A stretch of 64,000 bases of DNA, from NCBI RefSeq assembly GCF_044324785.1, contig NZ_CP172127.1; one strand, 5' to 3'. This document shows positions 58,601 through 61,600 of this stretch, in pieces (position 1 is the stretch's first letter; the number at the start of each line of letters is the position of its first letter). The position numbers were made by a program. The DNA comes from Escherichia coli (GTDB lineage: Bacteria > Pseudomonadota > Gammaproteobacteria > Enterobacterales > Enterobacteriaceae).

Positions 58601-61600
58601 GTCAATACCAAAACGCTGATGAACCATATTGTATGCATCGTCATAGCGAAGTCCTTTCTTTCCTACCAGCATGTTTACTGCATCGCGTAGCGGTGTTCTT
58701 TCCTCAACAGTGGTTTTCTTTCCTTTTACATACTCGCCATGTTTGCGAATTGAAGGCAGAACTTCTGCTGTTACCCACTTGCGGAATTTGTGCGGGACTG
58801 AACCTTTATTGACTGCATCGCGGCAGCGCAGAACCAATGTATACATACCTGATTCGCTCACAATGCTTAGATTCTGCTCACCACCAAGGGTGTAACTTAA
58901 AGTTACTCCCTTTTCATCGTCATCAAGTGCAGTAAGCGCCTTGCGTGAGTTAGTCAAATCTAAAGCATCACAAACATCTTTAGCTACAAACCACGGCTCA
59001 CCGCACTTGTTGATGACGCGGATTTCACTGTCGCCGAATTTGAAGATGGTGAAATCGTTTTGTGCCTTTGCTATACTTTTCATGTCAATATTTCCTAATC
59101 CGATTTGTTGATGCCGAAGCCCTGACTGTTACAGCAGTTGGGGCTTCAACTTTACGCACCAATGCGCCCTTCCTTCTTAAAGCTTTCCATTACTCGCTGA
59201 TAAATCTCAGAATTAACAGACCGACCATTTTCTTCCGCCACCTTGCGTACCAAATCCAATACTTCTTTAGGCCACCGCAAATTGAACTGTGGCATTTTGC
59301 TCATTCCTTTCATGTTCACCTCACAATATAGGTCCACGGTGGACCTATTGAGAATATAGTAGAGTGCTTCTATCATGTCAATACACTAACTTGGAGTGAT
59401 GGCATGGCTAGAGATGATCCGCACTTTAACTTCCGTATGCCTTTGGAAGTAAGAGAAAAATTGAAATTAAGAGCCGAGGCTAACGGAAGGTCAATGAACT
59501 CTGAGTTATTACAAATCGTTCAGGATGCACTATCAAAACCATCACCGATTACAGGATATCGCGACGAAGCTGAACGCTTGGCTGATCAGCAGGCTGAGCA
59601 GTTCAAGGCTATAGTGTTTGAGACACTTAAAAAGATTTATGAAAAGGATTTGAAATGAGATTTCTATCACTGTTCTTGTTAGCAGTTGTCTCTTCTTCCA
59701 GTGCTGAGCGGCTTTGTTGAATAAATCGAACTTTTGCTGAGTTGAAGGATCAGATCACGTATCTTCCCGACAACGCAGACCGTTCCGTGGCAAAGCAAAA
59801 GTTCAAAATCACCAACTGGCCCACCTACAATAAAGCCCTCATCAACCGTGGCTCCATAACTTTCTGGCTGGATGATGAAGCTATTCAGGCCTGGTATGAG
59901 TCAGCAACACCTTCTTCACGAGGCAGACCTCAGCGCTATTCTGACCTTGCCATCACTACTGTGCTGGTCATTAAACGCGTATTCAGGCTGACCCTGCGGG
60001 CTGCGCAGGGCTTTATTGATTCCATTTTTTCTCTGATGAACGTTCCGCTACGCTGCCCGGATTACAGCTGTGTCAGCAGGCGGGCAAAGTCGGTTAATGT
60101 CAGTTTCAAAACGCCCACCCGGGGTGAAATCGCACACCTGGTAATTGATTCCACCGGGCTGAAGGTCTTCGGTGAAGGCGAGTGGAAAGTCAAAAAGCAT
60201 GGCCAGGAACGCCGCCGTATCTGGCGTAAGCTGCATCTCGCCGTTGACAGTAAAACACATGAAATCATCTGCGCTGACCTGTCGCTGAACAACGTTACGG
60301 ACTCAGAGGCCTTCCCCGGGTTAATCCGGCAAACCCACCGGAAAATCAGGTCAGCCGCCGCCGATGGCGCTTACGATACCCGGCTATGTCACGATGAACT
60401 GCGGCGTAAGAAAATCAGCGCGCTTATCCCTCCCCGAAAAGGTGCGGGTTACTGGCCCGGTGAATATGCAGACCGTAACCGTGCAGTGGCTAATCAGCGA
60501 ATGACCGGGAGTAATGCGCGGTGGAAATGGACAACAGATTACAACCGTCGCTCGATAGCGGAAACGGCGATGTACCGGGTAAAACAGCTGTTCGGGGGTT
60601 CACTGACGCTGCGTGACTACGATGGTCAGGTTGCGGAGGCTATGGCCCTGGTACGAGCGCTGAACAAAATGACGAAAGCAGGTATGCCTGAAAGCGTGCG
60701 TATTGCCTGAAAACACAACCCGCTACGGGGGAGACTTACCCGAAATCTGATTTATTCAACAAAGCCGTGCTGAGCTGCGCGAGCTTCAAACGGGTAATGA
60801 CCTTCTTTACAACATTCAACAAGGTAAAAAGGGTGATGATTTTTCATCGCTTTACATTACTGGATATTTGCGCGGAGTAACTGACTCATTGATACTAATT
60901 GGTTCTCTATGTCCTCCTGATGGCGTTGACATGTATCAATACACCGATATCGTTGAGAAATCTCTAAACAAAAACCCAGAATCAAGAAATGAGAGTGCAG
61001 TTATACTAACCGCCCTAGCAGTAGGAAAAACATTTCCGTGCAAAAAGAATCAATAACAATAAGGGCTTAAAATGAAATTGATTATAGCAATGGCTTTCCT
61101 TGTCTTCTCGTTTTCTGTCTCAGCAGAGTGCTGGGTCGTTGGAGATATGCACGGAATAAGCTATTCAGAACGAAATAATTTTCAACCGGAAGAAGATGGT
61201 TTTAGTGGAACATTCATCATTAAGACAAACGGTGAAGATGCCAGTATCACATATTCTGGGACGGATGCGGGCGGCATGGCTTACAAAGCATTGTCTAAAA
61301 ACTCCATCCTAGGAATTGGCGCGAATGGAGAAACTCAACGCGTTATAGACTCATGGGTAATACATCCTACTGGAACAGTTTTAATGTCAAAAACCATTTC
61401 CGGTTATGGAAATATGGATTCAACCAAAGCTTTTGTTGGAAAAGTAAAAAGAAAATGTTAACGATAGGATTATGGCCCTACATCAACAGCTTCCGCGTCC
61501 CTGAGTAATTCTGTTGCGGATTTGCTTCTTGCGGTGGTTTAAGCTGGAGAGCTTGGCTTCTGCTTCTGATATTTGCGCATCAAGATCTTTAAGCTCAAGA

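Follow-up and report, generated by a model that had tools for sequence, protein, structure and literature searches.

A Rap1a/Tai-family gene interrupted by IS903B and an intact Hex-family gene behind mnt in a P22-like prophage of Escherichia coli

The maintenance repressor Mnt of phage P22 is produced in lysogens from the promoter P_mnt. The P22 protein SieA protects against superinfecting P22-like phages (PMC10883804). In phage 434 the genes cI and hex share a transcript from P_RM, and P22 is excluded by Salmonella lysogens of lambda imm434 but not by hex mutants, hence the name 'heterologous exclusion'; deletion of hex leads to an approximately 30-fold increase in spontaneous induction that depends on RecA, a Hex fragment protects the repressors of 434 and P22 from cleavage in vitro, and full-length Hex is lethal on overexpression (PMC3564112). 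Rap1a-type proteins, which are periplasmic and dimeric and contain a conserved disulfide, neutralise peptidoglycan amidases delivered by type VI secretion (PMC3695027). The DNA described here, a 64,000-nucleotide stretch of Escherichia coli contig NZ_CP172127.1 (RefSeq assembly GCF_044324785.1) that is referred to at its full length as the window, encodes relatives of the last two proteins side by side behind mnt at the end of a P22-like prophage. Gene 1 belongs to the Rap1a/Tai family and is split by the insertion sequence (IS) IS903B, gene 2 belongs to the Hex family and is intact, and the pair is termed the cassette. With confidence slightly on the favourable side of even, the locus is interpreted as a lysogen-expressed periplasmic protection cassette combining an orphan peptidoglycan-amidase inhibitor with a Hex-type exclusion protein, the former cut and the latter intact in this strain.

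The mnt region and the families of the two cargo genes

The final 8 kb of the 64-kb window represent the end of the P22-like prophage and display the order tailspike-ant-arc-mnt-cassette-gene 16 equivalent, the same as 9-ant-arc-mnt-orf59a-sieA-16 in the P22 feature table. The immI control region at 59330..59403, delimited by alignment with P22, the P22 feature table and a promoter scan, comprises the mnt operator palindrome and two face-to-face promoter-like sites. The palindrome AGGTCCACGGTGGACCT at 59330-59346 is the counterpart of the P22 mnt operator, from which it differs at a single position, column 9 of alignment A4, and the promoter scan places P_mnt at 59348-59376 on the + strand facing P_ant at 59381-59353 on the - strand. 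From the palindrome to the mnt start the alignment with P22 is identical save for this single base; the P22 regulatory logic can therefore be carried over. The mnt open reading frame (59404..59658, + strand) encodes an Arc/Mnt family repressor of 84 amino acids and shares 82% DNA identity with P22 mnt over nucleotides 1-227. Similarity to P22 stops near the 3' end of mnt, where P22 continues with the stop codon, orf59a and a terminator and the window with new genes. The first of these starts within the mnt stop codon, as an earlier, preliminary description of the locus had stated: the TGA of mnt (59656-59658) and the ATG of gene 1 (59655-59657) overlap as ATGA at 59655-59658, and the Shine-Dalgarno sequence for the rap1a-like gene sits within the end of mnt. 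Gene 2 is the third gene after P_mnt on the + strand, with the IS intervening, and over the stretch from mnt through gene 2 the terminator scan of this strand finds a terminator-like site only inside the IS.

The coding sequence of gene 1 is not intact in the window, where IS903B parts codons 1-18 from the remainder. Removal of the element together with one copy of the target duplication, joining 59655-59709 to 60776-61056, restores an open reading frame of 111 amino acids with a signal-peptide-like N-terminus and two cysteines, C64 and C107, in agreement with the preliminary description. That account had regarded both cargo proteins as unrecognised, which does not hold for either of them. By its sequence gene 1 is a homologue of the Rap1a/Tai-family type VI amidase immunity proteins: it matches Pfam PF18602 (Rap1a) at E=1.4e-13 over residues 24-107 and model positions 1-90 of 90, and the family profile A3, comprising 33 gene 1 relatives, matches Tai4 (6IJE/6IJF, E=2e-7) and Rap1a (3ZFI/4BI8, E=1.6e-5) in the Protein Data Bank (PDB). 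Both cysteines and the C-terminal FPCK motif line up with Tai4 and Rap1a, C64 and C107 being nearly invariant among the relatives. The AlphaFold2 model of gene 1, with a mean predicted local distance difference test score (pLDDT) of 89, places four helices after the signal peptide, a predicted structure that displays the compact all-alpha fold of Rap1a and Tai4. Foldseek against the PDB assigns a probability of 1.00 to seven matches only, all of them Rap1a or Tai4 chains, with E-values from 3.5e-4 to 1.8e-2 (one below 1e-3) and template modelling (TM) scores of 0.72-0.76 normalised to the target; matches below these seven have E>0.1 and represent noise. In RefSeq the intact allele (WP_001211768.1) bears the name 'Rap1a/Tai family immunity protein' and is recorded in 24 complete E. 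coli genomes, E. coli C among them, all of which also carry mnt and gene 2. The preliminary description had tied gene 1 to phage exclusion; the in silico reconstruction with its Foldseek and Pfam matches leads to the Rap1a/Tai family, which is known from interbacterial competition rather than from phage exclusion, and for gene 1 the tie is formally contradicted.

Gene 2 (61072..61461, + strand) is intact and starts 15 nucleotides past the gene 1 stop behind its own AAGGG Shine-Dalgarno sequence; the second exported protein of 129 amino acids at this distance had been noted before. Its N-terminus is signal-peptide-like and its cysteines are Cys20 and Cys129. Sequence comparison identifies gene 2 as a member of the phage 434 Hex family. 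It matches phrog_2651, a family of 'unknown function', at 1.1e-59, 434 Hex matches the same family at 1.4e-58, and Sf6 gp38 is also a member. Direct BLASTP alignment of gene 2 with 434 Hex extends end to end over 133 columns with 29% identity (E=4e-14), tblastn of gene 2 against the phage collection returns a Hex-type match at E=1e-6, and a hidden Markov model from the gene 2 relatives gives 434 Hex 125 bits. Full-length homologues with 29% identity lie, by tblastn, directly downstream of a cI-type repressor in 434, HK633, HK446, Sf6 (gene 38), Sf101 and others, and in 434 the hex start overlaps the cI stop via ATGA. The 434 open reading frame used here (locus L015, 2429-2905) corresponds to the published Hex, its 158-residue frame having Glu43 and Asn103 at the reported ends of the active fragment (PMC3564112).

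An exhaustive search yields 94 representative protein clusters related to gene 2, mostly of 125-135 residues, 79 of which constitute alignment A1. Throughout this alignment Cys20 is invariant and located two residues past the predicted cleavage site, the C-terminal cysteine is nearly invariant and the sequences share a conserved ETW motif. In RefSeq the gene 2 homologue (L004 4182-4496, L001 6678-6992) begins at an internal Met, which gives 104 amino acids and loses the signal peptide; conservation of the N-terminus across the aligned family speaks for the 129-residue form and its ribosome-binding site. A confident model predicts that gene 2 folds as a small beta-barrel. Neither gene 2 nor any of the 79 family members matches Pfam at E <= 0.001, the family sequence profile finds nothing credible in the PDB, and neither cargo gene matches NCBIfam. 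An outer-membrane barrel, considered for gene 2 as a homologue is labelled PagP in one phage record, was rejected: the protein is too short and ends in a conserved cysteine, not in an aromatic residue.

Conservation of the arrangement and predicted export

IS-free alleles, which the preliminary description proposed to look for in other prophages, are found in the 24 complete E. coli genomes and in prophage contigs. The genes mnt, rap1a-like and hex-like follow one another without interruption in 16 IMG/VR prophage contigs and at loci L001, L004, L010 and L011, which amounts to 20 E. coli-type loci. Two sequence types of the cassette occur, the second sharing with the first only approximately 65% identity in gene 1 and 48% in gene 2 and mostly positioned behind a very different mnt allele. 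The two E. coli types and a Tatumella prophage share the ATGA-type overlap between the mnt stop and the rap1a-like start; in a Serratia prophage mnt and rap1a are 17 nucleotides apart and no hex-like gene follows, and the Buttiauxella locus is a remnant with a 37-residue stub of mnt. Chance is no issue for this observation because near-identical uninterrupted alleles of gene 1, with a single-nucleotide difference, are carried by many genomes. The presence of a Rap1a/Tai-type gene in the mnt operon of P22-like prophages from several genera, often accompanied by a Hex-type gene, seems to be undescribed in the literature searched. The gene 16-type ejection proteins of Serratia (L009 8536-11337) and Tatumella (L014 8844-11741) contain an SLT lytic transglycosylase domain, and their genes adjoin the mnt-rap1a pair.

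Both families extend beyond this arrangement. Solo Hex-family genes are located beside gene 16 in Salmonella phage Emek, between terminase and lysis genes in a lambdoid prophage (L006) and after the tail fibre genes of a Pantoea prophage (L038), and another member occupies the repressor-side operon of a metagenomic phage (L040); repressor operons also contain the Hex-family genes of 434 and Sf6 and the Rap1a-family gene of L035. Distant Rap1a-family relatives are found on an integrase island, in metagenomic and isolated phages and on conjugative P. syringae plasmids. All neighbourhoods of gene 1 relatives that were read belong to phages or other mobile elements, and they are free of Tae4-type effectors and of type VI secretion system genes. 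At L035 (4001-4348) a Rap1a-family gene of a lambdoid prophage lies downstream of cI, a HipA-like gene and DUF3037, and in Cronobacter phage ENT47670 (L018 3001-3273) a Rap1a-family gene is an unannotated open reading frame between structural genes.

Export is predicted for both families. A hydrophobic N-terminal core is present in every sequence (79/79 Hex-family, 33/33 Rap1a-clade), and the -3/-1 rule is obeyed at the aligned cleavage site by 69/79 and 28/33, respectively; in silico, the gene 1 signal peptide MRFLSLFLLAVVSSSSA/E satisfies it as well. The active Hex fragment of the literature has an odd N-terminus, Glu43 in the 158-residue frame, that coincides exactly with the predicted signal-peptidase site TSANS/ECW, which belongs to a 134-residue 434 open reading frame starting at the ATGA overlap with cI. 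Export of Hex is nowhere considered in the study that defined this fragment (PMC3564112), and the predicted export of the Hex family seems to be undescribed in the literature searched.

IS903B and the state of the locus in this strain

IS903B occupies 59710..60766 on the + strand (1057 bp) and is the only copy in the window. The element is bounded by perfect 18-bp terminal inverted repeats GGCTTTGTTGAATAAATC, contains an intact transposase open reading frame (59742-60710, + strand), is 99.1% identical to an element annotated in RefSeq as 'IS903B family transposase' and is flanked by the 9-bp direct target-site duplication GTGCTGAGC, with the left copy at 59701..59709 and the right copy at 60767..60775. 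Its length of ~1057 bp, 18-bp repeats, 9-bp target duplication and single transposase gene are those of IS903 (IS5 family), and the perfect duplication on both sides is as first reported. The entry point in gene 1 follows nucleotide 55, the first base of codon 19; the position given earlier, after codon 18, is essentially right, and the sequence claims of that description hold with one-base corrections. The 5' fragment (59655..59709, + strand), which comprises the start codon, the signal peptide and the first mature residues, would yield a peptide of 21 residues, and the 3' fragment (60776..61056, + strand) includes the stop codon and is left without a usable start codon or signal peptide. Gene 1 is thus a pseudogene here, inactivated by the separation of its signal peptide from the rest, as had been recognised.

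A single nucleotide separates the interrupted gene 1 from its common intact allele and causes the substitution Y81S at the conserved KYL position; unique to the interrupted allele, the change fits relaxed selection after the insertion or may be due to chance. Since mnt is identical to that of intact loci and gene 1 is one nucleotide different, the insertion looks recent. The IS-interrupted allele is absent from the complete E. coli genomes of the collection. Gene 2 is now preceded by 281 untranslated nucleotides, which favours a polar effect, and the IS may thus lower its transcription; the block of gene 2 expression proposed earlier is plausible, with the co-oriented transposase gene, the ribosome-binding site of gene 2 and a promoter-like site upstream of it (60926-60953, promoter scan) to be noted beside it. 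It is possible, if doubtful, that the cassette is altogether inert in this strain, gene 1 being dead and gene 2 silenced by polarity in a decaying prophage end. The split signal peptide, the lack of a usable start codon in the 3' part, Y81S at its conserved position and the untranslated stretch ahead of gene 2 all agree with such decay, as does the occurrence of IS903B in a visibly decayed P22-like prophage of another E. coli genome. In contrast, the recent appearance of the insertion, the intact state of gene 2, its ribosome-binding site and the promoter-like site, and the read-through transcription made possible by the orientation of the transposase gene argue against an inert cassette.

The second IS903B copy referred to belongs to E. 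coli 364_BP0073 (NZ_OZ121069.1; L044 3533-4501), in which the element immediately follows a tailspike gene; the P22-like prophage there is decayed and has lost its entire immI region. IS903B may be repeatedly involved in eroding this prophage end.

On the other side of the control region the prophage genes run on the - strand. The tailspike gene (55736..58105), equivalent to P22 gene 9 and with a head-binding N-terminus, marks the prophage end and corresponds to loci annotated as phage tailspike/head-binding domain protein. It is followed by ant (58205..59083), encoding the antirepressor, whose RefSeq homologue is annotated antirepressor Ant or P22AR, and by arc (59152..59313), which encodes 53 amino acids with the N-terminus MKGMSKMPQFNLRW and has as its counterpart a 162-nucleotide Arc family gene at the equivalent site in E. 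coli C and ETEC1747 (RefSeq). Beyond the cassette, the 3' part of a gene for a gene 16-type DNA transfer (ejection) protein (62788..63999, - strand) continues past the window end, the homologous position being annotated DNA transfer protein; the cassette therefore lies between mnt and gene 16, at the sieA-equivalent position assigned to it from the start. The interval from gene 2 to gene 16 (61483-62770) contains five small cargo open reading frames, none of them SieA-like: an XhlA-like frame of 64 amino acids (61483-61677, - strand), an exported frame of 60 amino acids matching phrog_37095 with three cysteines in its C-terminal half (61700-61882, + strand), a YjzC-like frame of 59 amino acids (61993-62172, + strand; Pfam E=0.003), a frame of 121 amino acids with a HECAH motif that matches phrog_1365 and has no Pfam match (62186-62551, - strand), and a frame of 109 amino acids with two hydrophobic segments that adjoins gene 16 (62441-62770, + strand). 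Just upstream of the prophage end an island encodes a type I restriction-modification system (hsdR, hsdM and hsdS, window 47632-53493), near which an ash-family gene and an integrase are also present in related E. coli loci. The host is recognised as E. coli by its paoABCD region (36.7-41.6 kb), whose identity to chromosomes of this species reaches 99.4%.

Proposed function and relation to known systems

As a protection cassette, the locus would operate as part of the immI maintenance operon, in which P_mnt would drive mnt and then the two cargo genes. Since Mnt is made from P_mnt in P22 lysogens, both proteins would be present in every lysogen with an intact cassette, and both would be exported to the periplasm via Sec. 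There the gene 1 protein would block an incoming Tae4/Ssp1-type peptidoglycan amidase and so protect the cell wall of the lysogen; the best supported source of such an amidase is type VI secretion by competitors, which would make gene 1 a case of orphan immunity by lysogenic conversion. The gene 2 protein would exclude heterologous superinfecting phages in the manner of 434 Hex, probably in the periplasm because of its export signal and conserved cysteines. In this strain IS903B would have abolished the first function by cutting gene 1 just past the signal peptide, leaving gene 2 intact and its transcription perhaps lowered by polarity.

Several observations weigh against this interpretation. 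PADLOC is without a model for gene 1 or gene 2, and no Tae4-type effector or type VI secretion system cluster is located beside gene 1 or in any neighbourhood of a relative that was read. The linkage to an effector that characterises the Rap1a/Tai4 family is thus lacking, the neighbours of gene 1 being mnt and the Hex-like gene, and because of this the type VI target of gene 1 is deduced from distant homologues only, the characterised ones being only ~25% identical (22-26%). Immunity genes without effector genes exist (PMC3695027), and gene 1 is at best an orphan immunity gene of this kind. In Serratia, Rap1a pairs with Ssp1 and Rap2a with Ssp2 to the exclusion of the other combinations (PMC3695027), and since immunity in the Rap1a family is specific the target of gene 1 cannot be narrowed to a given effector; in this window gene 1 is moreover incapable of yielding a functional protein. 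Some relatives lie in early lytic regions (L045; phage DSL-LC04), unlike what a purely lysogenic role would entail. As the neighbourhoods of the relatives are all those of phages or other mobile elements, gene 1 may have a phage-directed role. For gene 2, the sole biochemical study of Hex describes a cytoplasmic role, the blocking of RecA-mediated repressor cleavage, which conflicts with the predicted export (PMC3564112).

A phage-directed role for gene 1 is taken furthest by the proposal that both proteins constitute one periplasmic superinfection-exclusion module, in which gene 1 would inhibit the peptidoglycan-cutting enzyme of an incoming phage and gene 2 would stop DNA delivery at a later stage. 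The pair does fill the sieA slot of P22, and tblastn with SieA of the P22 type, the only type searched, reveals no similarity in genes 1 and 2, the prophage part of the window or the other loci searched, among them the cassette-bearing ones (the 109-residue membrane frame gives E=0.61). Both divergent sequence types keep the two genes together, the mobile neighbourhoods of the gene 1 relatives are free of type VI effectors, the Serratia and Tatumella gene 16-type proteins bear a peptidoglycan-cleaving SLT domain, and exclusion of P22 is the reported phenotype of 434 Hex (PMC3564112). In contrast, the only known targets of the Rap1a family are the Tae4/Ssp1 amidases, which are cysteine peptidases (PMC3695027), and SLT lytic transglycosylases represent another enzyme class. 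The two genes also occur separately, the Rap1a-like gene alone in Serratia and Tatumella and the Hex-like gene alone in Emek, Sf6, 434, L006 and L038. We know of no enterobacterial phage with a Tae4-like enzyme in its virion, which further counts against a joint module and leaves it unlikely. Of the periplasmic exclusion or lysogenic-conversion module that the preliminary description envisaged, the exclusion part is supported by the kinship of gene 2 with Hex; the gene 1 family is known from interbacterial competition and does not support exclusion, yet its carriage would count as lysogenic conversion.

Gene 2 could alternatively act as a cytoplasmic stabiliser of lysogeny that blocks the RecA-stimulated self-cleavage of the main c2/cI-type repressor instead of excluding phages in the periplasm. 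The RecA-dependent, ~30-fold rise in induction on deletion of hex and the in vitro protection of the 434 and P22 repressors by a Hex fragment are what this role predicts (PMC3564112); the element is P22-like, so that a P22-type repressor could be the target, and placement in a repressor operon suits the tuning of lysogeny. However, all members of the alignment (79/79) carry a signal-peptide-like N-terminus, the invariant cysteine and a C-terminal cysteine, which are marks of exported disulfide-bonded proteins. The fragment starts at Glu43, precisely where signal peptidase is predicted to cut, and the active fragment, purified with guanidine, represents the first half only of the predicted barrel. 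Isolated cargo members far from repressors, such as those after tail fibre genes (L038) or between terminase and lysis genes (L006), are likewise difficult to reconcile with a stabiliser, and this role for gene 2 is judged rather improbable. It is very improbable that both genes form an 'immunity islet' against interbacterial toxins in which the Hex family would neutralise some effector, for although both proteins are small and periplasmic, like most immunity proteins against periplasm-acting effectors, the genes are adjacent and co-inherited and orphan immunity islets are reported from enterobacteria (PMC7400221), the Hex-family neighbourhoods read are all of phage origin and without a toxin or type VI secretion system gene, except for a chromosomal islet (L042/L043) with an Ntox50 match ~3 kb away, and the only genetic phenotype reported for the Hex family is phage exclusion together with prophage stability.

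With the protection cassette as the favoured interpretation, a broader and more tentative idea is that P22-like prophages of Enterobacterales carry a two-layer periplasmic shield in their repressor operon, an amidase inhibitor acting against type VI secretion and Hex against phages; this generalisation is possible but doubtful. If it is true, type VI resistance would be a form of lysogenic conversion not described for P22-like phages in the literature searched. If the intact cassette works as proposed, lysogeny by a common E. coli prophage would alter the outcome of contact-dependent bacterial warfare and of phage superinfection, and the protective genes would surely be expressed because they are carried on the repressor transcript, which would link phage biology to competition in the gut. 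If Hex acts in the periplasm, the published cytoplasmic RecA mechanism of 434 Hex needs revisiting; that the Hex family has the marks of an exported disulfide-bonded protein raises a question on textbook phage 434. The window itself is of modest importance, gene 1 being a copy, inactivated by the IS, of a gene already named in RefSeq. Both genes belong to known families, and the noteworthy part is the conserved cassette and the question of where Hex is located.

Among the characterised proteins, Rap1a of Serratia marcescens (SMA2260; 3ZFI, 4BI8) confers immunity to Ssp1 and Tai4 of Agrobacterium tumefaciens (6IJE, 6IJF) confers immunity to Tae4. Gene 1 resembles them in its ~90-100 mature residues, Sec signal peptide, predicted all-alpha fold, cysteine pair and C-terminal FPCK, in addition to the profile and fold matches. 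It differs in sequence (~22-26% identity), in the lack of an effector or type VI neighbour, in its translational coupling to a phage repressor gene and in being cut by an IS here, and its binding of an amidase is putative. Orphan type VI immunity genes and islets on mobile elements similarly consist of an immunity-family gene without its effector; in contrast, the carrier of the present cassette is a temperate phage and the gene forms part of the repressor operon, an arrangement not described in the literature searched. No relevant paper on a prophage-borne Rap1a or Tai4 was found in that literature.

Gene 2 shares with 434 Hex the family phrog_2651, 29% full-length identity, a signal peptide, the cysteine positions and a location downstream of a prophage repressor on the same strand, and the ATGA overlap of hex with cI parallels that of gene 1 with mnt. 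In contrast to 434 Hex, the genes ahead of gene 2 are mnt and a Rap1a-like one in immI rather than cI in immC, and 71% of the residues differ; the published mechanism, RecA antagonism, is cytoplasmic, whereas export is predicted from the sequence. P22 SieA occupies the same slot as the cassette, from mnt to gene 16, and is expressed from the prophage, as the cassette would be, but it is a 164-residue multi-pass inner-membrane protein with its own promoter, whereas the products of genes 1 and 2 carry no more than a cleavable signal peptide. In the cI-rexA-rexB operon of lambda and similar repressor operons, protective cargo is joined to the maintenance repressor by co-transcription, so that the cargo is made in every lysogen, an architecture that is also proposed for the cassette; in the P22-like cassette, in contrast, the repressor is Mnt, of the Arc family, and the cargo is different and predicted to be periplasmic.

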